From an uncultured Syntrophomonadaceae bacterium (lineage in GTDB: Bacteria; Bacillota; Dethiobacteria; DTU022): a DNA stretch of 64,000 bases. Below are positions 26,344 to 64,000 of the stretch, piece by piece (positions within the stretch are counted from its first letter, which is position 1; the number at the start of each line of letters is the position of its first letter). The stretch covers positions 2,343-66,342 of the forward strand of contig CAZAKI010000004.1 of NCBI GenBank assembly GCA_964485855.1, written 5' to 3'. Made by a program: the position numbers and the translations under genes. The notes under the pieces are model-generated. The model had not been told where the DNA came from, did not search any database, and saw nothing but the letters and a program-made list of their open reading frames with translations.

Positions 26344-26430
26344 TGGTGCGAGCGAGAGGACTTGAACCTCCACGGGCGTTAAGCCCACTAGGTCCTGAAC
26401 CTAGCGCGTCTGCCATTCCGCCACGCTCGC
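26344..26430 (-). tRNA. tRNA-Leu (anticodon CAG)
   Basis: Reverse complement GCGAGCGTGGCGGAATGGCAGACGCGCTAGGTTCAGGACCTAGTGGGCTTAACGCCCGTGGAGGTTCAAGTCCTCTCGCTCGCACCA folds as a cloverleaf with a long variable arm, anticodon loop TTCAGGA, and an encoded CCA. Confidence 0.9.
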
Positions 26431-39018: not shown

Positions 39019-39095
39019 TGGTCGGAGCGACTGGATTTGAACCAGCGACCTCTTGACCCCCAGTCAAGCGCGCTACCAAACTGCGCCACGCCCCG
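39019..39095 (-). tRNA. tRNA-Pro (anticodon GGG)
   Basis: Reverse complement CGGGGCGTGGCGCAGTTTGGTAGCGCGCTTGACTGGGGGTCAAGAGGTCGCTGGTTCAAATCCAGTCGCTCCGACCA folds as a cloverleaf with anticodon loop CTGGGGG. A TTGACT-17-TAAAAT promoter lies upstream at 39140-39170. Confidence 0.9.
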
Positions 39096-43855: not shown

Positions 43856-45925
43856 CTAATTATTCTTTTCAGCTTCTGTCACTTCTGCATTAGGTTCTTC
43901 AGCCGGCTCAACCAGCTCTTCTGAATCAGCCGGATAATCTCCGTTCTCAAAAAGATCACCGAAAACATCACCTAAAGTAACATTACCGTTTTCCGACCCA
44001 TTAAAATCAGCAGCATTTCCGGCATAGGCAATACCACCGGCTTCTTTGATGCTGAGGCTGATTCGCTTGTTTTTCGCTTTAATTTCGATTACTTTTACTT
44101 CAACTTCTTCACCCTCCTGTAAAACTTCAGAAGGATGCTTGACATGAAAATCAGCCAACTGTGATATATGAGCCAAACCTTCCACTCCGGGTTTTAATTC
44201 AACAAAGGCACCAAAATTTGCCAGTCTGGTCACTTTACCTTTAATAATTTGTCCGCTTTCCAACCCTTCAATAGCTTTAAGCCAGGGATCAGGAAGGGTT
44301 TTCCGGATGCTCAGGCTGATTCGTTCTTTTTCCGGTTGGACTTCCAGCACTTCGACCTCGACCTGTTCTCCTACTTTTAGAGCTTCACCAGGATGCTTAA
44401 TCCTTCCCCAGGCAATCTCGGATACATGAACGAGGCCGTCTATCCCGCCGATATCAACAAAAGCCCCAAAGTTAGTTAATCTTTTAACTTTACCGCTGAT
44501 TACCGAGCCGGTTTCGATGGCTTTTAAAGTTTCCTCCTTCTTCTTCGCTTCTTCTTCAGCAACTATTGCCTTACGACTCAGAATCATTTTGCCTTTTTCC
44601 CGGTCGAATTCAATTAATTTAAACTGAAGCGGTTGTTCTTTAAAAACATTGAAATCCGGAATGTAAGCTGTATCAACCAGCGAGCCAGGCATAAAGCCTT
44701 CCACCCCTGAACCGAGATCAATAACCAACCCGGCCCCGACAACCTGTTTTACTTTTCCTTCAATCATCAATGATTCATCATGAGCTTCTTCCAGTTCACG
44801 CATCCGCTTTTCACGGGCCAACCGTTTATGTGAAACGACTACTTTCCCCTCTTGATCTTCATTCTCCAGAACGGTAACCTCGATGACGTCTTCCGGAACA
44901 AAAAGATCGGCTAAAGTTTTACCTTCAGCTAAATGCACCTCGTCACTGGGAAGAATAGCCTCGGTTTTACTGCCAATATCAACAAAAACTTCATCCGCGG
45001 TGACCCTGGCTACCTTTCCGGTAACCTGTTCTCCAACCAGTGCCACCTTCACTTCACCATCAAATTGAAACAACTCGTCATTCTTTACTTCTGCGTTCTC
45101 ATTTTCCATACTTTCCACAACCTCCTTGATCGTCCATGGGGGAGTTGAGGCACCGGCGGTAACACCAATAACCCCGTAGCTCTTAATAAAAGAATGTTTC
45201 AACTCCCTTGCACTATTTACCCGGCAAGCTGGTTTCAGCTTCCGGCATCTATCGAAAAGGGTTTTCGTATTTGCGCTTGTCTCACTGCCAACAACAATAA
45301 ACGCATCAACCCTTTCAGCCATTTTTACAACTTCATCCTGCCTTAGTTTGGTCTCCGGACAAATTGTATTATAAACCAAACCCTCATGATTTGCATCCCG
45401 AAAGATAGTTTCAGCCTGCCTGAACTGTTCGGCATTACAAGTGGTCTGGGCAATCAACGCTGCAGGCTGTTCAGTAATCATGGCCGCGAGCTGTTCGGTT
45501 GAAGATGCAACTTGCGCCCTGCCGCCGGCCCAGCCTAATAACCCTTTTACTTCCGGGTGATCCGGGTTGCCAAAGATGATTATATTATAACCATCAGCAG
45601 CTAACTGGGCAGCAGTCTGCTGAACTTTTTTAACCCTGGGACAAGTTAGATCGATTACTTTTAGATTGGGAATCTGCTTTAAGTTCTCGATTAAGCCAGG
45701 GGTTGCTCCATGGGTCCTGATTGCCAAAAAAGAGCCTTCTACGTTATCAGGATGTTCCACGGTTTTTACCGCATGTTTTTCCAGGTAGCGCCCAACCGCT
45801 TCATTATGCACCAGAGGGCCAAGAACAGATCCACTGCCGCTAAGAGCCGCTTCTTCCAAGACAGCCTCGAGCGCCTTTTGTACCCCGGAACAAAAACCGG
45901 CATGCTTGGCATTGACTATTTTCAA
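43856..45925 (-). CDS. ispH: Bifunctional 4-hydroxy-3-methylbut-2-enyl diphosphate reductase (IspH/LytB) fused to ribosomal protein S1 domains
   Basis: 689 aa. The N-terminal 280 aa are IspH (HAGFCSGVQKA…, with three conserved Cys). The C-terminal part is four S1 repeats. This fusion is common in Clostridia. Confidence 0.9.
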   Translation of the reverse strand: MKIVNAKHAGFCSGVQKALEAVLEEAALSGSGSVLGPLVHNEAVGRYLEKHAVKTVEHPDNVEGSFLAIRTHGATPGLIENLKQIPNLKVIDLTCPRVKKVQQTAAQLAADGYNIIIFGNPDHPEVKGLLGWAGGRAQVASSTEQLAAMITEQPAALIAQTTCNAEQFRQAETIFRDANHEGLVYNTICPETKLRQDEVVKMAERVDAFIVVGSETSANTKTLFDRCRKLKPACRVNSARELKHSFIKSYGVIGVTAGASTPPWTIKEVVESMENENAEVKNDELFQFDGEVKVALVGEQVTGKVARVTADEVFVDIGSKTEAILPSDEVHLAEGKTLADLFVPEDVIEVTVLENEDQEGKVVVSHKRLAREKRMRELEEAHDESLMIEGKVKQVVGAGLVIDLGSGVEGFMPGSLVDTAYIPDFNVFKEQPLQFKLIEFDREKGKMILSRKAIVAEEEAKKKEETLKAIETGSVISGKVKRLTNFGAFVDIGGIDGLVHVSEIAWGRIKHPGEALKVGEQVEVEVLEVQPEKERISLSIRKTLPDPWLKAIEGLESGQIIKGKVTRLANFGAFVELKPGVEGLAHISQLADFHVKHPSEVLQEGEEVEVKVIEIKAKNKRISLSIKEAGGIAYAGNAADFNGSENGNVTLGDVFGDLFENGDYPADSEELVEPAEEPNAEVTEAEKNN

Positions 45926-54763: not shown

Positions 54764-56878
54764 TTAATTCAAGTTAAACCGTTTCATTTTTTCATAAAGC
54801 CAGGAGCGACTGATCCCTAAAAGACGGGCTGCTTCACTTCGATTGCCGCCGGCCTTCCTTAATGAACCTAAGATCGCCGCTCTTTCTTGTTCTGTGCGTG
54901 AATCACGATAGGCATGAGAAACTCTATTGTAATTTTCTACCAGCTGAGTATTGTTTTTTTCAGGCGAACTGCTCTGCCTCAAATGTGGTGGTAAATGTTC
55001 AATCCCGATTAGATGGTCAGAAGCAAAATTCAAAGCCCTCTCAATAATATTTTCCAGTTCCCGGACATTACCGGGCCAATGATATTTTTGCAAAGATAAA
55101 AGCGCCAGGGAATCAATCTCGGTGACCTGCATGTTAAATATAAGATTATATTTTCTCAGAAAAGCATAAACCAGTGGTAAAATGTCATCGATCCTCTCCC
55201 TCAGCGGAGGGATAATCAGGTGAATTACGTTTAGCCTGAAATATAGATCTTTACGAAAGGTGCCTTCTCTAACCTTTTTTTCCAGATCTTGATTGGTGGC
55301 AGCCAGGAAGCGGACATCCACTTTTTCGGTCTTAGTCCCACCAATTCTTTCAAAAGTTTGTTCTTCGAGAGCCCTGAGCAGCTTACCTTGTAGGGCAATC
55401 GGCAGATCACCAATCTCATCTAAGAATAGGGTTCCACCGTCAGCCAGATCCAGTCGGCCTCGTTTCCCTTCCCGGCGGGCGCCAGTAAAAGCGCCCTCTT
55501 CATAACCAAAAAATTCCGATTCAAGCAAGTTTTCGGGAATAGCAGCACAATTAACTCTTAGGAAGGCTTGATTACGACGCGGCCCCTCCTGGTGGATAGC
55601 CTGGGCAAGCAGTTCTTTCCCCACTCCGCTTTCTCCGCTGATTAAGACAGTAGAAAGTCCCCTTGCTGCCTGCTTCGCCTCATTAATTAAATCCAGCATC
55701 ACGGAATTAACGGTTATTATATCTTTAAAAACATAGGGTTTTTCTCGGAAACGTTCTTTTTTCAGTTCTTCCTGAAAGTGGGCTAGCCGGTTATTCATCG
55801 TCTCCAGCCTGGAAGCCAACTCACGCAGTTCGTCTACCCGTCTAAAGCTAATCTTGCCAACCGCCCCGATCACCTGTCCATCTCTGACTATGGGTAGCCT
55901 TGAAACAACATATGGTTTGCCGTCTATAAACTGGATGTCATTTAATTCGGGAATGCCAGTTTTTACAACAATATGCAAGCGGCTATTTTCCAATATTTTA
56001 TTGATCGGCTGGTTTATTACAATATTTTCTTCCCGTTTTATAAAATCGAGAAAAATCCGGTTAACCAGAACCACTGAAGCGCTCTCATCAACAACAACCA
56101 GTGCGTCATAACCGATATCAAGCACTGTTTCTAAAGTTTGGTTTAACCGCTTCACGGTTCCCATTTCCTCGGCGATCGTTTCCAACTCGGTAACGTCCTG
56201 GAAAAAAGCAATAGCTCCTACAATTTCACCCCCATCAATTAAAGGAGTTTTATTGACCATCGCTGTTATTTCACCAACTTGATATTTACTGCCTATGCTG
56301 ATCTGCCCACAGGTGAGTACCGGTTGCAGATCGAGTCCCGGCAAGACTGCTTCAACCATTCTCCCCTCGACCTTGGCCGGAAGCAAATTAAACAATTGCT
56401 CTGCGGCACGGTTTATATAGGTAATCGTACCAGAATAATCAACGGACACCAGGGCATTGTGCATTGCCTTGCAGATTACCTGCAGACGGCTGTTAAGCAG
56501 TTGCTCTTCCTTAAATAAAGCGGTAATCAATTCAACCTTTGTAAAAAGGCCAACCACTCGCTCATCGCCATCAACCACCACACCAGTTCCGACGGGAATC
56601 TTTCTAACCAAATCAATAACTTCCTGATAATCAAGATCTTTTTTAATCTTGACCACGTTGTGGTTATAATAATTATTAACTGTCTCCTGAAGAGATGTTC
56701 CCTTGATTAAAGCATCGTAGAGATTCGTTTTAGTAAATATACCGGCCAGTACACCGTCTTTATTGAGTACAGGCAGACCGTCACGCTGGCTATTACGTAA
56801 AAGATTAACAGCCTTTTGCAGGCTATCCTCCGGGCGCAGTGTTGCAAAATCACGGGTCATCATATCTTCCAGTCGCAA
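54764..56878 (-). CDS. Sigma-54-dependent transcriptional activator with tandem CBS, PAS, AAA+ and Fis-type HTH domains
   Basis: 704 aa. Two N-terminal CBS modules, a Walker A GESGVGKE, the GAFTGA motif (YEEGAFTGA) and a C-terminal HTH. Confidence 0.85.
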   Translation of the reverse strand: MRLEDMMTRDFATLRPEDSLQKAVNLLRNSQRDGLPVLNKDGVLAGIFTKTNLYDALIKGTSLQETVNNYYNHNVVKIKKDLDYQEVIDLVRKIPVGTGVVVDGDERVVGLFTKVELITALFKEEQLLNSRLQVICKAMHNALVSVDYSGTITYINRAAEQLFNLLPAKVEGRMVEAVLPGLDLQPVLTCGQISIGSKYQVGEITAMVNKTPLIDGGEIVGAIAFFQDVTELETIAEEMGTVKRLNQTLETVLDIGYDALVVVDESASVVLVNRIFLDFIKREENIVINQPINKILENSRLHIVVKTGIPELNDIQFIDGKPYVVSRLPIVRDGQVIGAVGKISFRRVDELRELASRLETMNNRLAHFQEELKKERFREKPYVFKDIITVNSVMLDLINEAKQAARGLSTVLISGESGVGKELLAQAIHQEGPRRNQAFLRVNCAAIPENLLESEFFGYEEGAFTGARREGKRGRLDLADGGTLFLDEIGDLPIALQGKLLRALEEQTFERIGGTKTEKVDVRFLAATNQDLEKKVREGTFRKDLYFRLNVIHLIIPPLRERIDDILPLVYAFLRKYNLIFNMQVTEIDSLALLSLQKYHWPGNVRELENIIERALNFASDHLIGIEHLPPHLRQSSSPEKNNTQLVENYNRVSHAYRDSRTEQERAAILGSLRKAGGNRSEAARLLGISRSWLYEKMKRFNLN

Positions 56879-56893: not shown

Positions 56894-58612
56894 TTAAATG
56901 ATCGGTTCTCGTGCCTGCTTAAATCGCAAAGCTCTTTCCATTAAACTGTCAACATGCTGCAAACTAACCTGGTCAATACTGGCCCCGTCAAGCATACGGG
57001 CCAGTTCATTGCGACGCTCATTAGCGCTGAGTAATGATGCCCTGGTCATTGTTCTTTCACCACTGACTTCTTTATATAAGCAGATATGAGAATCAGCCAT
57101 TGAAGCAATTTGTGGGCTGTGAGTTACACACATCACCTGGTGGTGTTTCGCCAGACCGGCTAACTTTTCAGCAACGGCCTGAATTGTTGCCCCGCCTATA
57201 CCTGAATCAACTTCATCGAAAATAAGCGTTGGGATTAAATCCTGACGGGCAAGCGCAGTTTTTAGCGCCAGCATCACCCTGGCAACTTCACCGCCCGAGA
57301 TAATCTTCGCCAATGGTTTTACTGCTTCACCCTGGTTGGCTGAAAAAAGGAATTCTACGGTATCCATACCAAGTGGCCCAACTTCTTCCCGGCGGCCGAT
57401 GTTTACTTTGAAGCTGGCATTAGGCAGTGCCAGCTCCTTAAGACACTCTTCAATCAGTTGCTCGAGATTTTTCGCGCTTTCACATCTTTTTTTGCTTAAC
57501 TCTGTGCTTTCAGCAATTAATTGATCGTTAAGCAGAACCAATTCCGCTTCGATCTTTTCAATCATCGCCTCACTGTTCACCAATCTTTCAATCTCGTTTT
57601 CGGTCTTAGTAGCAAAAGAAATAACTGCTTCCAATGACCCTCCGTATTTGCGTTTTAAATTATTGATCAAGTTAAACCGTTCTTGAATCATCTGCAATTC
57701 TGCAGGATCAAACTCAAATCCTGACTGGTAAGTACGCAGTTCGTGCGATACCTCTTCCAGTTGGGCTGCAGCCGAAGCAACTAGCTCCAGCAGCGGTTCA
57801 AGTTTATGATCGATTCCGGCCGCTTCGCTCAACAGTGCAGAATTGTGGCTAAGACGATCAACCAGTGATTCGATCTCCTGAGACTCATCTCCACGATATA
57901 GGTTGCAATAAAGACGGGAAACAAGCATCGATAACTTCTCAGCATTGGACAATATCCGTTCCCGTTCAGCAAGCTCTTCGTCTTCACCAGTTTTTAACGC
58001 AGCGCCCTGAATCTCTTTCAGCTGAAAATTATAAAGGTCCAGGCGTCTAGCTCTTTCAGCTTCATCATCACCATATCCTGATAGCTCTTTTTTTAAATCA
58101 CCTTTACGCCGCCACAGTTCGCCAATTTTCTTGCGTGACTGTCCAATCGAGTCTCCTCCGAAGGCGTCTAGTAGCTCGATATGCTGATCCTGCCGCAGCA
58201 ATGATTGATGCTGGTGCTGTCCATGCAAGTCGACCAAAAGCTGTCCAAGGTCCTTTAAAAAAGAGATTGGAACGGCCCTGCCATTAACCCTGGCAACACT
58301 GCGTCCATTTCTATAAACCTCCCGGGCAATAATCAGCTCGTTTTCGTAATCAATGCCTGCCTCTGCCAGCAGGGTGTTGACTTGCTTTTGCACCGCCGGC
58401 TCAGCATTAACGATCCCCTCAATATATGCCTCCGTACTACCCTGGCGGATCTGTTCTACAGTCGCTCGCTCACCGAGCAACAGATTAATTGCACCAATGA
58501 TAATCGATTTACCGGCACCGGTTTCTCCACTTAAGACGTTCAATCCCGGGCTAAAACTGATGGCAAGATCTTCAATTAGGGCATAATTGGCTACTTTGAG
58601 TTCTGCGAGCAT
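56894..58612 (-). CDS. recN: DNA repair protein RecN
   Basis: 572 aa. SMC-like N-terminal Walker A (GETGAGKS), coiled coil, and a C-terminal signature. Confidence 0.9.
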   Translation of the reverse strand: MLAELKVANYALIEDLAISFSPGLNVLSGETGAGKSIIIGAINLLLGERATVEQIRQGSTEAYIEGIVNAEPAVQKQVNTLLAEAGIDYENELIIAREVYRNGRSVARVNGRAVPISFLKDLGQLLVDLHGQHQHQSLLRQDQHIELLDAFGGDSIGQSRKKIGELWRRKGDLKKELSGYGDDEAERARRLDLYNFQLKEIQGAALKTGEDEELAERERILSNAEKLSMLVSRLYCNLYRGDESQEIESLVDRLSHNSALLSEAAGIDHKLEPLLELVASAAAQLEEVSHELRTYQSGFEFDPAELQMIQERFNLINNLKRKYGGSLEAVISFATKTENEIERLVNSEAMIEKIEAELVLLNDQLIAESTELSKKRCESAKNLEQLIEECLKELALPNASFKVNIGRREEVGPLGMDTVEFLFSANQGEAVKPLAKIISGGEVARVMLALKTALARQDLIPTLIFDEVDSGIGGATIQAVAEKLAGLAKHHQVMCVTHSPQIASMADSHICLYKEVSGERTMTRASLLSANERRNELARMLDGASIDQVSLQHVDSLMERALRFKQAREPII

Positions 58613-58631
58613 GCCTCAACCTCCCAGTACC

Positions 58632-59483
58632 TCATGCTTTAAGTTTTTGATGTAGCATGCGGTAAAATGAATAATCCTTAAATGATACCAGTTTTACTGA
58701 TTGTTCGGCTCGGTTGACAATGATTTGATCTTCATCTTCCAGGGTATATCTGACCTGGCCATCAACGGTTAACATTACGTCAACCTGGCGTGAATCGATA
58801 TGCAGCCTTACCTGGTCGCTCCCGTTAATCACTACCGAACGATTATAAAGACTGTGCGGACAAATTGGGGTCACGATAAAAAGCTGCATGGTCGGATTAA
58901 CTATCGGCCCGCCGGCCGAAAGGGAATAACCGGTTGAGCCGGTAGGCGTAGCAACTATAATGCCGTCTCCATAATAACTTTCCATGAACTCACTATTTAT
59001 ATATGCTTCGACTTTGATAATCCGGGAAAAAGGTCCACGAGAGACGACAATGTCATTCAGGCTAAGGTAAGAAGCAAGTTCTTTCGCATTCCGATAAAGC
59101 TTTGCTTCCAACATCATTCTTTCCTGGTAACCATAACGGCCGGTTGTGACATATTCTAAAAACCGTTCCATCTGGTCTACCTCGATTTCTGCTAAGAAAC
59201 CTTTGTGGCCTAAATTGATTCCAAGCACCGGTTTATGCCAACAGGCAAGATCGCGTGCCACTCTTAGGATTGTGCCATCGCCACCGATCACAATGATCAT
59301 TTCCAAACGACCATTCCATGATTTAAGTTGATCCGCCAACGAGGTTTCACTGTAAAAATCAACCAATTCAGAACCGGCGATCTGCAGATCTATATGGCGC
59401 TGTTCCAGGAACCTGGAGATTTCACCAACGACCAGCCTGGCATTCTTCTTTCGCCAATTCGGAATAAGCCCGATGGATTTCAT
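58632..59483 (-). CDS. nadK: NAD+ kinase
   Basis: 283 aa. GGDGT motif and an NE/D short motif are present. Confidence 0.9.
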   Translation of the reverse strand: MKSIGLIPNWRKKNARLVVGEISRFLEQRHIDLQIAGSELVDFYSETSLADQLKSWNGRLEMIIVIGGDGTILRVARDLACWHKPVLGINLGHKGFLAEIEVDQMERFLEYVTTGRYGYQERMMLEAKLYRNAKELASYLSLNDIVVSRGPFSRIIKVEAYINSEFMESYYGDGIIVATPTGSTGYSLSAGGPIVNPTMQLFIVTPICPHSLYNRSVVINGSDQVRLHIDSRQVDVMLTVDGQVRYTLEDEDQIIVNRAEQSVKLVSFKDYSFYRMLHQKLKA

Positions 59484-59550: not shown

Positions 59551-60384
59551 TTAGCGATCACCTGACAATAAATTTAAATGTGCATCTTGCACTACTTTTT
59601 TTATTTTTTCCTCACTATTTTCAGCATCAACCAACTGTTTTTCAGCATCAAGCTCTAAGTACAAAAAATATTCAATATTGCCTTTCGGACCAACCAGGTG
59701 TGAGTAAGTCAATTGCCGACATCGATAACCATTATCAGCAGCCGCAAGCATTAGATCGCCAAGCACTTTTTCATGAAGCCGTGGATTACGGATCACACCT
59801 CTGCCTCTGGTCGCTTCAATTCGTCCCACTTCAAATTGCGGTTTTACTAAGGAGACTACTCTCGATATCTCGCATTGATTAAGAGCCGGAAATACCATCT
59901 TTAACGAAATAAACGAGACATCAACGACTGCCAGATCTGGTTTCTCTGAAAAGTTTTCCGGTTTTAAATTACGAACATTGAACCGTTCTAAAAAAACTAC
60001 CCGGGGGTCGTTTCTTAGCTTGTATGCCAGTTGTCCATAACCGACATCAACGGCATATACTTTTTCAGCACCGTTTTGCAAAAGACAATCGGTAAAACCA
60101 CCGGTCGAGGCACCAATGTCAACAATTGTAAGTCGTCGGACATCCAGCTTAAAATCGCTGATCGCTCCAGCCAGCTTTAATCCGCCCCGACTGACATAGG
60201 AATTACCAGGATCACTGAACTCAACATCAGCCTCACAATCAATACTAGTCCCAGCTTTATCTACATGATGACCATTAACCCGTACTGCACCGGTCATGAT
60301 CAGCGACTGGATACGATTACGGCTTAGTTCCGGGTATTTTTTTTGTAAGAGAAGATCCAACCTTATTTTCTGACTTTTCTTCAA
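59551..60384 (-). CDS. tlyA: TlyA-family rRNA 2'-O-methyltransferase (S4 domain + FtsJ-like MTase; 'hemolysin A')
   Basis: 277 aa. N-terminal S4 (RLDLLL…) and a SAM-binding DIGASTGGFTD motif. Confidence 0.85.
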   Translation of the reverse strand: MKKSQKIRLDLLLQKKYPELSRNRIQSLIMTGAVRVNGHHVDKAGTSIDCEADVEFSDPGNSYVSRGGLKLAGAISDFKLDVRRLTIVDIGASTGGFTDCLLQNGAEKVYAVDVGYGQLAYKLRNDPRVVFLERFNVRNLKPENFSEKPDLAVVDVSFISLKMVFPALNQCEISRVVSLVKPQFEVGRIEATRGRGVIRNPRLHEKVLGDLMLAAADNGYRCRQLTYSHLVGPKGNIEYFLYLELDAEKQLVDAENSEEKIKKVVQDAHLNLLSGDR

Positions 60385-62285
60385 TTGATCCTATTTGCCC
60401 TTTTAAGTTTGGTAAAATCAATAATCGATTCATAAATCCCTTCTGCATCTAAGCCCTGACATGTTAACATCTGGCTCCGTGTACCGTGACCAACAAAATG
60501 ATCATCAATGCCAAGCCGCCGGATTGGGATAAAAAGATCATTTTTTGCAAGCAGATCAGCGATCCCGCTGCCAAATCCACCGGAGAGAATATTTTCCTCA
60601 ACCGTTACGACCATCCGGCACTGTCGAGCCCATTTAATAATTAACTTTTCATCCAGGGGTTTGACAAACCTGGCGTTGATCACTGTGGCTTTTAAATTTT
60701 GCCAGGATAATCTTTCGGCAGCCGCAAGCACTGATTGCAGTACTGTCCCGGCAGAAACGATTAGCAGATCAGACCCCTGCCGAACCAGCTCACCTTTACC
60801 CCAGGGCAGAAGGTTAAGCGGTCCCGTTTCAATACCGGTTACCTTGTCACGCGGGTAACGGATGGCAACCGGTCCTGAAGCTAATTGCAGGGCGGTGAAG
60901 AGCAGGTTTTGCTGCTCCCGTTCATTAGCCGGGGCCATTATTGTCATATTTGGCATAGTGCGTAAATATGAAAGATCAAACAGACCTTGATGTGTTTCCC
61001 CATCTTCCCCAACAATCCCGGCCCGATCAACAGCAAAAACAACAGGTAGATTCTGTAAGCAGGTGTCGTGAATCAGTTGATCGTATGCGCGCTGAAGGAA
61101 TGTGCTGTAGACGGCAAATACTGGGCGCAAACCACCGGCAGCAAGAGCGGCAGCCATTGTCACGGCGTGTTGTTCAGCAATACCAACATCATAAAAGCGA
61201 TCGGGAAATTCTTTACTGAAGTTTTTTAATCCCGTTCCGGTTGACATTGCTGCCGTTATTGCCACGATCTTCGGATCTAAACGGGCAAGTTCAACCATGG
61301 TGTGGCCAAAATGATCAGTGTAAGATTTTATTTTTTTCTTTTTCAATGGCAATCCATTGCTGAGATCAAAGGGCCCGACGCCGTGAAAAACTTCCGGTTC
61401 AATTTCTGCAAAGTGGTAACCCTTTCCCTTTTCTGTCACAACATGGACCAATACCGGTCCGCGCATTTTGTCTGCTTGCTTCAGCACATTATCGATTGCA
61501 ATCAGGTCATGCCCGTCGACAGGACCGAAATAGGTAAAACCGAGTTCTTCAAAAAGCATTCCGGGCACGATTAGGTACTTTAATCCTCCCTTGATTCTTT
61601 CCGCAGTTTCAACCAATTTTTTACCGATATGGGGAATCCGGGTTACATAATTTTCAAAGTCTTTTTTTAGTCTTGAATACTTTGGATCCGACCTGATTCG
61701 ACTAAGGTAAGCAGAAAGGCTGCCTACATTTGAGCTAATCGACATTTTATTGTCATTCAAAATTACTGTGATGTCAGCTTTGATATGACCGGCATGATTT
61801 AAAGCTTCAAATGACATTCCCCCGGTCAGGGCTCCATCGCCGATTACAGCAACAACCCGAAAATTTTCATGCTGTTGATCACGGGCCAGCGCCAGGCCGA
61901 GAGCAGCAGAGATTGAAGTACTGCTATGTCCGGTTAAGAAAGGATCATGCTCGCTTTCTGAAGGCTTCGGGAAGCCGCAAAGACCTCCCTGGAGACGCAG
62001 GGTATGAAATTCTTTCCAACGACCGGTTAATAGTTTATGAGCATAACTTTGGTGTCCCACATCCCAGATGATTTTATCGCGCGGGCTTTCATAAAAACGA
62101 TGTAAGGCTACGGCAAGCTCAACTACACCCAGGCTGGCAGCCAGGTGCCCCCCATTGTCAGCAACTGTTTTAATCATATGCTGCCTCAGTGCTGATGCAA
62201 CCTCTTGCAACTGTTGATCAGAGAGCTTCTTTAAATCTTCCGGCAATGACAGTTTACCGATATAGTTTTCCATATTATTCCTCAA
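60381..62285 (-). CDS. dxs: 1-deoxy-D-xylulose-5-phosphate synthase
   Basis: 634 aa. The ThDP-binding GDG…N motif and transketolase-like domains are present. Confidence 0.9.
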   Translation of the reverse strand: MRNNMENYIGKLSLPEDLKKLSDQQLQEVASALRQHMIKTVADNGGHLAASLGVVELAVALHRFYESPRDKIIWDVGHQSYAHKLLTGRWKEFHTLRLQGGLCGFPKPSESEHDPFLTGHSSTSISAALGLALARDQQHENFRVVAVIGDGALTGGMSFEALNHAGHIKADITVILNDNKMSISSNVGSLSAYLSRIRSDPKYSRLKKDFENYVTRIPHIGKKLVETAERIKGGLKYLIVPGMLFEELGFTYFGPVDGHDLIAIDNVLKQADKMRGPVLVHVVTEKGKGYHFAEIEPEVFHGVGPFDLSNGLPLKKKKIKSYTDHFGHTMVELARLDPKIVAITAAMSTGTGLKNFSKEFPDRFYDVGIAEQHAVTMAAALAAGGLRPVFAVYSTFLQRAYDQLIHDTCLQNLPVVFAVDRAGIVGEDGETHQGLFDLSYLRTMPNMTIMAPANEREQQNLLFTALQLASGPVAIRYPRDKVTGIETGPLNLLPWGKGELVRQGSDLLIVSAGTVLQSVLAAAERLSWQNLKATVINARFVKPLDEKLIIKWARQCRMVVTVEENILSGGFGSGIADLLAKNDLFIPIRRLGIDDHFVGHGTRSQMLTCQGLDAEGIYESIIDFTKLKRANRIN

Positions 62286-62309: not shown

Positions 62310-62885
62310 TTATTCGTTACTTCTTTTGATTCGACCAAAGGGATTCTCGATTCTGGTCATAATTTTTGCCACAAACAATATAATTTCTGTAGAGTATTTA
62401 ATAGCGAGCGCTTTCCCCAAGGCTTTTCCACCAACAGTGATTGCAGCAACAATCGCCGTTAAGAAAATACCGATATAAAATTCGGCCTGGTGGGTTGTAA
62501 ATAAAGTCACTAGCCTGTAAACAATAATCGCTGCAATTGTTCCGCTGACGATACCACTAATATCGCCAATCACATCATTGCAAAAATTTGCCACCTGATC
62601 TGCATTCTTAACCAGGTAAACTCCTTTTTTTGCTCCGTACACCCTTCGAGCAGCCTTGGCATTAAGCGGTGCCACCTTGGCTGCTGCTGCCGCCGTTCCA
62701 ACCAAGTCAAAAATAATCCCTAATGAAACAATAAAAAGCAAAATCAAGAACGATATAAAAATTGATCCGACTTTGCTTATCATGTAGTGAGAAATAAAAC
62801 CGAACAATATTGCCAAAAAGAAAGTCCAAATAATCGACATATATACCCAGCGGGTTTTACGACGTTTTTTTAAATAATCAGCCAA
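62310..62885 (-). CDS. oapA: Small polytopic membrane protein in the position of OapA (OLE-associated protein A)
   Basis: 191 aa with four predicted TM helices. It lies directly downstream of the long ncRNA-like region and upstream of dxs-tlyA-nadK-recN. TTG start follows AAGGTGA at a 6-nt spacer. Confidence 0.6.
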   Translation of the reverse strand: MADYLKKRRKTRWVYMSIIWTFFLAILFGFISHYMISKVGSIFISFLILLFIVSLGIIFDLVGTAAAAAKVAPLNAKAARRVYGAKKGVYLVKNADQVANFCNDVIGDISGIVSGTIAAIIVYRLVTLFTTHQAEFYIGIFLTAIVAAITVGGKALGKALAIKYSTEIILFVAKIMTRIENPFGRIKRSNE

Positions 62886-62899
62886 ACTTCATCACCTTG

Positions 62900-63478
62900 A
62901 TGTACATAAAAACATAAGTGGTAGCAAGCCAGGTAAACTTTGCGGCTTAGGTCCAGCAGGATTTCCCGGATAATCACCTGTCGTTACCGAACAGGCAGTT
63001 CCCTTTTCAGACCATCCCGGCAGTGTCACCATCTGCAGAGCTGGATTACCACTTAGCTCACACTTTAATCCCTGGATTACTTCTCCTTAGAGAGCAGTCT
63101 AGGAGATTTCCTCACTGGTGCCTAATCTCCCCTAGCCCCTTTTGCAGAAAGGGTTTAAGAAGCACTAACTCCCTCCTCCACCAATTCCACTCAAGGCAGG
63201 CTACACTGCACACAGCTATTTACCGCATGCAGGTTCATACCCAGCCAGTAACTTTTGCTTTCAGGCATCTGGCCACCGTACTGGGTCTCCGCGGAGGCAG
63301 GGTCAACGCCTACATGCCATTGTAGATCGCCCCATCCTCCTTAACTCCCAGCAGCAGCCCCCAACTGGGCGTCGGCAGCCACCACCAGGAACTTCATCGA
63401 TGTGCCCTTAACGGATTTTTAGGCCCGCTTTCGGAGAGGGACACCAACTAGAATACTGCACCACTTATGTCCATGCTC
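62900..63478 (-). ncRNA. ole: Candidate OLE (ornate large extremophilic) RNA, ~580 nt
   Basis: A 650-bp ORF-free, G-rich (on the minus strand) region with its own TTGTGA-17-TATAAT promoter. It is flanked by folD upstream and by an oapA-like gene followed by dxs, tlyA, nadK and recN downstream, the conserved genomic context of OLE RNA in anaerobic Firmicutes. The only ORF is a 100-aa plus-strand artefact. Confidence 0.65.
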
Positions 63479-63485
63479 AAGACCA

Positions 63486-63514
63486 ATTATAGCATATGAC
63501 GCGGTTAATCACAA
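63486..63514 (-). promoter_or_regulatory. Sigma-A promoter driving the ole-oapA transcript (TTGTGA, 17 nt, TATAAT on the minus strand)
   Basis: Minus-strand reading gives aaaTTGTGAttaaccgcgtcatatgcTATAATtggtc, located between the folD stop (63541) and the ncRNA region. Confidence 0.55.
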
Positions 63515-63540
63515 TTTCAGTCTGCAGCTTAACATTTTCG

Positions 63541-64000
63541 CTAAAGAAGCCCGTGGGCCATTTTACAGGCTTTCAGAGCATTCTTCATTAGCATCCGGTT
63601 AGTAACCGAACCAACGCCGCCCGGAACCGGGGTAATTGCTTTAGTTTTATCTTTAACTGCATCAAAGGATACATCCCCGACTGTTTTCGTTTTCGGTTTA
63701 CCTTTATCATTAAGGACCGGCTCACCTTTTCCATCTAACACCTTGACCCGGTTGATCCCGACATCAATTACTACAGCCCCGTCCTTTATTAGATCAGGAC
63801 CAATCAAATCAGCTTTGCCGGCAGCGACAATCAAGATATCAGCTCCCGTGGTATGCTTAACCAAGTTCCCCTTCATGCTGGTAAATACGTGGGTGATTGA
63901 AGTTGTTGCATTACGATTAACAGCCAAGTAAGCTACCGGTTTGCCAACAATATTTGAATGACCGACGACTACAATTTCTGCTCCTTCAAAGAAATCTTTC
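63541..64000 (-). CDS. folD: Bifunctional methylenetetrahydrofolate dehydrogenase/cyclohydrolase FolD, C-terminal part; the gene continues beyond the window
   Basis: …[24 protein letters not shown]… is the conserved FolD C-terminal region. The reading frame stays open to position 64000. Confidence 0.8.

Follow-up and report, generated by a model that had tools for sequence, protein, structure and literature searches.

A canonical OLE RNA gene and its oapA neighbor in an uncultured bacterium of the Bacillota

Gene content of the locus and its relatives

The window analyzed here, a 64,000-nucleotide stretch of contig sequence from an uncultured Syntrophomonadaceae bacterium, carries close to one end a block of genes that are all read on the minus strand. 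Its center is ole (62902..63480), a 579-nt match to Rfam RF01071 that is of full-length type although its P9 apex is short, followed by oapA (62310..62885), which encodes a protein of 191 aa with a TTG start, four TM helices and a DxxxD motif. Downstream of this pair are dxs for 1-deoxy-D-xylulose-5-phosphate synthase (60381..62285; TIGR00204, 850.8 bits; probable ATG at 62273), tlyA for an rRNA 2'-O-methyltransferase (59551..60384; TIGR00478, 236.8 bits), nadK for NAD kinase (58632..59483; PF01513 and PF20143 together with the NCBIfam NAD kinase models) and recN (56894..58612; TIGR00634, 532.8 bits). The spacing between the genes that follow ole ranges from a 4-nt overlap to 67 nt, and the dxs gene call is 630 aa on contigs carrying the identical locus. 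On the other side, the 3' part of folD (63541..64000, truncated by the window end; PF02882, E 2e-42) has its stop codon at 63541-63543, directly upstream of the OLE promoter, leaving a folD-to-oapA gap of 655 bp when measured to the start of the oapA ORF at 62885. The gene order folD / ole-oapA-dxs-tlyA-nadK-recN on the minus strand, as proposed in the initial annotation, was confirmed by the Pfam and NCBIfam matches.

Two features of this neighborhood had been singled out as departures from the usual arrangement. The placement of folD rather than ispA upstream of ole proved correct as far as adjacency is concerned and does not amount to a real departure, as ispA lies two genes further up: longer contigs with the identical locus read nusB-tsaD-xseA-xseB-ispA-fchA-folD-OLE-oapA-dxs-tlyA-nadK-recN, and the contigs of two related loci (L001 and L002) carry a complete folD, then fchA and ispA upstream. 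The insertion between ispA and ole (63541-64000 in the window, 6779-9345 in L001) consists of folD and fchA, the latter encoding an FTCD_C cyclohydrolase. Two synteny types could be distinguished, with ispA-fchA-folD-OLE in the window and its closer relatives and folD-xseA-xseB-ispA-OLE in more distant relatives. The order folD-xseA-xseB-ispA is the usual one in Bacillus genomes. The position of folD was rejected as the mark of an unusual locus; fchA-folD has moved locally within one sub-clade. The other feature, the absence of argR between nadK and recN, is real, since these two genes are only 19 nt apart (58613-58631). The corresponding gap does not exceed 199 nt in 59 of 60 relatives, which implies that the lack of argR at this position is clade-wide; no clade member has argR in the locus, with one possible exception (L085, gap of 532 nt). 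The argR product is an unpublished candidate OLE partner (PMC12265935). In addition, none of the ten small or otherwise unassigned ORFs scanned in the window (55-213 aa) matched oapB (KOW), oapC (L7Ae) or argR; linkage of oapB or oapC to ole is not expected.

Several other genes in the window were recorded. A 704-aa CBS-PAS sigma-54-dependent activator (54764-56878, minus strand) lies directly downstream of recN, with PrdR as its top NCBIfam match, under the cut-off of that model, and is followed by NUDIX and xerD genes. In many Bacilli and Clostridia, the position after recN is occupied by spoIVB and spo0A. A bifunctional fusion of IspH and ribosomal protein S1 (43856-45925, minus strand; NF000907, 671 bits) represents a second isoprenoid-pathway gene, approximately 14 kb from dxs and 16 kb from ole. 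Besides OLE, the sole Rfam matches in the window are two tRNA genes (26347-26430 and 39022-39095, minus strand).

Scanning GTDB at one genome per species with an OapA alignment returned 80 related loci, the best of which shares 72% identity, and an identical 191-aa protein was found on nine contigs, all of them metagenomic. Nearly all of the 80 loci come from metagenome-assembled genomes (MAGs) titled Syntrophomonadaceae, Bacillota or Dethiobacteria, and the closest relatives of the window locus belong to MAGs labeled Syntrophomonadaceae or Dethiobacteria. When the window OLE was used as an nhmmer query, a homolog was detected directly upstream of oapA and on the same strand in all 74 informative loci. 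The remaining six (L017, L051, L062, L068, L073 and L081), with less than 200 nt upstream of oapA, were uninformative and lack an OLE match because their contigs end there. Similarly, 20 contigs start inside OLE (L009, L013, L022, L023, L027, L028, L030, L031, L039, L040, L046, L048, L052, L054, L058, L060, L072, L074, L076 and L083), and roughly one in three of the related metagenome contigs is interrupted in or beside this gene, presumably because the RNAs of co-occurring species are too conserved for assemblers. OLE would consequently be under-counted in fragmented MAGs. Five loci (L019, L021, L034, L050 and L070) were found in MAGs titled Candidatus Limnocylindrales, Ilumatobacteraceae, Desulfovibrio or Desulfovibrionaceae; they show the same Bacillota gene order and are likely to be binning contamination, similar to the 24 non-Bacillota OLE hits that were set aside by Fernando and Breaker.

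Sequence and structure of the OLE RNA

OLE (ornate, large, extremophilic) RNA is a structured bacterial RNA of ~600 nt, with some 25 helices and about one nucleotide in four nearly invariant, that is located at the membrane together with OapA. Approximately 2,800 representatives have been catalogued across GTDB genomes (PMC11332333). The covariance-model search that the initial annotation had called for gave a strongly positive answer: cmscan against Rfam 15 placed OLE (RF01071) at 62902-63480 on the minus strand with 471.2 bits (E 5.3e-136), compared with a gathering cut-off of 50 bits, in an untruncated alignment that spans model positions 1-616 of 616. This was the sole match in the region and was reproduced by an Rfam scan of the whole window. 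Of the upper-case (highly conserved) consensus positions of RF01071 in this alignment, 227 out of 245 (92.7%) are identical in the window RNA, whose length of 579 nt falls within the ~600-nt class. The stretch is therefore an intact and canonical OLE RNA, a member of a family that was already known.

Recognized elements of the family could be located. The P4 hairpin carries an A-rich loop (CUAAAAAU), the loops of P5.1 and P6.1 read GCCCA and UGGC, respectively, P7 and P8 are present, and P14.1 is capped by a GUAA (GNRA) loop. In the Rfam alignment, the P13 hairpin has a GUGA tetraloop closed by a G-C pair and a bulge on its 5' side. A GNRA tetraloop plus a single-nucleotide bulge in P13 constitutes the binding site of OapB (PMC7936274), and the predicted OapB site is thus retained in the window RNA. 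J4a/5 (AUCGAUGAAGUUCC) and J5/6 (GGGAGUUAAGG) match the consensus exactly; as conserved nucleotides of these two junctions, which flank P5, form the k-turn of OapC (PMC9723947), the nucleotides of a putative OapC k-turn are present as well.

The initial annotation had started from a region of about 600 bp with no credible ORF and a strong strand bias in C. The former observation was upheld. The 655-bp gap contains a single ORF, an antisense frame of 100 aa (63023-63325, plus strand), and the equivalent segment is open in the same register in just seven of 54 relatives, which marks the frame as spurious and not a gene. The compositional bias is real and, at 31.3% C and 20.6% G on the plus strand of the OLE stretch versus 24.5% C and 20.2% G in the whole window, moderate rather than strong, the RNA itself being G-rich.

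A structure for this clade was derived by aligning 55 of its OLE RNAs with MAFFT, which gave a mean column identity of 75%. RNAalifold predicted 173 pairs in 26 helices, 85 of these pairs showing compensatory double changes, whereas shuffled alignments gave 51.4 such pairs and none of 500 shuffles reached the observed number. Paired cells amounted to 97.9% on this structure compared with 90.9% in the shuffles, and sliding the partners by one to three columns left only 27-41 double-change pairs. The closing helix has 13 bp, 11 of which covary, and was taken as P1. Long-range helices 1-5, which are unpaired in the structure line of Rfam, were recovered by the clade alignment and are taken to be P1-P3. 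In P13 (helix 22 of the clade structure), five of six pairs covary. At the base of this hairpin, near position 62950 (minus strand; columns 512/531), the window OLE has a U.C mismatch, and it is the sole sequence among the 55 without a standard pair there.

The most distinctive part of the RNA is the P9 arm. Its apex in the window (63150-63190, minus strand) comprises 9 nt, 35 nt shorter than the 44 nt of the Rfam consensus. The segment enclosed by the conserved GGUGGAG and UUAAACC is only 22-36 nt long in 54 of the 55 clade members (columns 317-378), where it forms a 5-7 bp hairpin that is mostly capped by a tetraloop and is variable in sequence, with a covarying stem. A palindromic tetranucleotide occurs in the predicted P9 loop of six of the 55 sequences, and the loop of the window has none. 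The A-rich P4 loop and the P5.1-P6.1 kissing loops, which are further dimer contacts of OLE, are invariant in sequence within the clade.

Promoter, transcription and the OapA protein

A promoter scan identified a sigma-A-type promoter, TTGTGA-17 nt-TATAAT with a TG extended -10, at 63486..63514 on the minus strand, which agrees with consensus at 10 of 12 positions and coincides with the promoter proposed in the initial annotation. The predicted transcription start (~63479) corresponds to position 1 of the OLE model, and the promoter lies about 7 nt ahead of the RNA. Such a scan of the region alone performs at chance level (two promoters found, 2.3 expected), and the promoter is credible because it is conserved in relatives rather than because of a lone consensus match. 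All 54 loci whose sequence reaches 90 nt or more beyond the conserved GUGGUGCAG core on its upstream side have TTGnnn-17/18-TAnnnT at the equivalent position, including 52 with the extended TG, 46 with an exact TATAAT and 51 with a 17-nt spacer. The distance from the end of the -10 element to the GUGGUGCAG core is 13-25 nt (mode 21) in 52 of these loci, and 35 and 40 nt in the remaining two.

On the 3' side, the Shine-Dalgarno sequence of oapA (AAGGTGA; 62892..62898, minus strand), read from the sequence 6 nt before the TTG codon, starts 4 nt past the OLE match, and oapA itself starts 16 nt past it. The terminator scan found no terminator-like site between OLE and oapA, so transcripts from the promoter would have to continue into oapA, and the two genes are predicted to be co-transcribed. 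A terminator-like site inside oapA (62486-62469) was disregarded as being at chance level (one found, 1.4 expected). The promoter of the window locus is in keeping with the situation in B. halodurans, where OLE is expressed from a proximal promoter of its own. That promoter increases expression over 100-fold, and ethanol induces it approximately 7-fold; the RNA is also co-transcribed with neighboring genes and is unusually stable, appearing as a single abundant species (PMC3413148). Possession of its own promoter, demonstrated there for OLE, was accordingly rejected as an unusual trait of the window locus.

The 191-aa protein downstream of ole has the four hydrophobic segments expected of the four-TM protein described initially (residues 14-32, 41-59, 105-129 and 138-156 by hydropathy), and its AF2 model is all-helical. 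The DxxxD motif that had been suggested as a diagnostic in the TM helices is present as D104-V-I-G-D108, with D104, V105, G107 and D108 invariant across 19 homologs of 53-71% identity; the alignment of homologs contains 57 invariant columns, indicating clear purifying selection. Pfam and NCBIfam at default thresholds assigned the protein to no family. In a relaxed Pfam scan, it matched CNNM (PF01595) at E 0.001 with 19.2 bits, below the cut-off of 28.4, and no CBS domain was detected. No relative turned up when PDB sequences were searched with a profile, and the predicted fold superposes on MtCorB (7M1U) and CorC (7CFG). OapA has been defined by a length of about 190 aa with four TM helices, by a DxxxD motif that is absent from true CNNM domains, by a distant similarity to CNNM that comes without CBS domains, and by a CorB-like fold (PMC11332333; PMC12265935). 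Identification of the 191-aa protein as OapA is supported by its agreement with these published descriptions and by its position directly after ole. A large protein collection contains 5,620 homologs, nearly all of them unnamed and 180-200 aa long. The family thus has more than 5600 members, yet no Pfam or NCBIfam model, and its annotations are inconsistent, including 'CBS domain containing-hemolysin-like protein', 'YacL', 'CorB' and 'hypothetical'.

Interpretation and comparison with known systems

Taken together, the region is in all probability an ole-oapA locus that functions in an uncultured, presumably anaerobic member of the Bacillota. The conserved extended -10 sigma-A promoter would drive synthesis of the 579-nt OLE RNA and then, without an intervening terminator, of oapA-dxs-tlyA-nadK-recN. 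By analogy with H. halodurans and Clostridium, OLE may be made at a high level from its own promoter, in addition to longer operon transcripts, and would accumulate as a stable species that dimerizes. Dimers of OapA may then bind OLE at palindromes close to P2 and P4a, tethering the RNA at or across the cytoplasmic membrane as in the systems studied by experiment. With OapB, OapC, bS21 and other partners, the resulting OLE RNP might confer tolerance of stress, such as short-chain alcohols, cold, excess Mg2+ and poor carbon sources. It is also conceivable that OapA serves as a CNNM-like divalent-cation transporter.

Other readings of the same evidence were considered. It could be argued that OLE here is only a long cis-regulatory 5' leader of an oapA-dxs-tlyA-nadK-recN operon and gives rise to no separate stable RNA, as no terminator-like site precedes oapA, whose Shine-Dalgarno sequence is only 4 nt beyond the OLE match, and the downstream gaps are short (4-nt overlap to 67 nt). 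However, the same arrangement in B. halodurans yields a single abundant and very stable OLE (PMC3413148), the 13-bp closing P1 with its 11 covarying pairs bounds a compact RNA from end to end, and about 25% invariant nucleotides together with 26 helices far exceed the needs of any known leader, which leaves the leader reading only a slim chance. That the region is instead protein-coding, through the 100-codon antisense ORF at 63023-63325 (plus strand), and that the RNA match is incidental is hardly credible: such an ORF does exist, but its register is uninterrupted by stops in just seven of 54 relatives, substitutions track base-pair covariation and not codon structure, and the Rfam E-value is 5e-136.

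Decay of the RNA must also be weighed, as defective ole genes, though rare, are on record for genomes without oapA. A non-functional remnant could account for a P9 arm that falls 35 nt below the Rfam consensus, for four non-canonical P7 pairs in the Rfam alignment, and for the U.C mismatch at the base of P13 that is unique among the 55 sequences. On the other hand, the match extends over the full model (471 bits) and preserves 227 of the 245 conserved positions, the promoter is conserved, and the adjacent oapA is intact, its 57 invariant columns pointing to clear purifying selection. Moreover, all but one of the 55 clade members have the short P9, and its stem covaries, which makes it a trait of the lineage rather than a sign of decay. 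A decaying remnant was consequently judged very improbable, and a functional ole-oapA locus remains the preferred interpretation.

As a member of its family, the window OLE is a standard and already known case that is detected at once by the curated Rfam model. The practical consequence is one of annotation: the gene should be labeled ole, and the 191-aa 'hypothetical protein' should be labeled oapA. OLE is an intriguing membrane RNP, but this copy has little import beyond the correction. The clade alignment (55 sequences, 85 covarying pairs) is of use in that it recovers the long-range helices independently, and the uniformly short P9 of the clade bears on the need for the P9 kissing-loop dimer contact.

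In the cryo-EM dimer of C. acetobutylicum OLE, one of the bridges (B3) is a symmetric kissing-loop contact between the L9.3 loops (PMC12286853), which is backed by covariation among palindromes (PMC12286853; PMC12265935). In contrast to that RNA, the clade of the window has a reduced P9 and no conserved palindromic loop, suggesting that the L9.3 contact is probably missing there. Whether an otherwise full-length OLE without a palindromic L9.3 means that one of the four cryo-EM dimer contacts is naturally dispensable or replaced appears to us an evenly balanced question. If it does, these short-P9 RNAs would offer a ready natural deletion series for probing the role of the P9 arch. A shortened P9 is shared with OLE variant 1 (TANB77-type), described by Fernando and Breaker in 2024, which has shorter P7, P8 and P9 (PMC11332333). 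Unlike variant 1, the window RNA has P7 and P8 of normal length and retains the P13 GNRA tetraloop and bulge, and the host genomes of its clade are not those of reduced gut symbionts. Because P7, P8 and the P13 site for OapB are kept in full, the RNA is classed as full-length, albeit with a minimal P9. As natural short-P9 variants are known, the P9 dimer contact is not family-defining, and the minimal P9 represents a modest variation within a known family, a lead rather than a finding.

Comparison of OapA with the CNNM/DUF21 domains of the MpfA, CorB and CorC Mg2+ transporters reveals a weak PF01595 similarity and a superposable predicted fold; unlike MpfA and CorB, OapA has no CBS or CorC_HlyC domains and possesses a fourth TM helix, as published (PMC11332333). 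With the OLE RNAs of H. halodurans and C. acetobutylicum, the window RNA shares its length class, the full model and the conserved nucleotides, the A-rich P4 loop, the P5.1 and P6.1 loops, P7 and P8, the P13 GUGA tetraloop with its bulge and the GNRA loop of P14.1, as well as a proximal promoter, oapA immediately 3' and a neighborhood of isoprenoid, translation and DNA-repair genes. It differs from them in that fchA-folD lies between ispA and ole and that argR does not occur at the nadK-recN junction.
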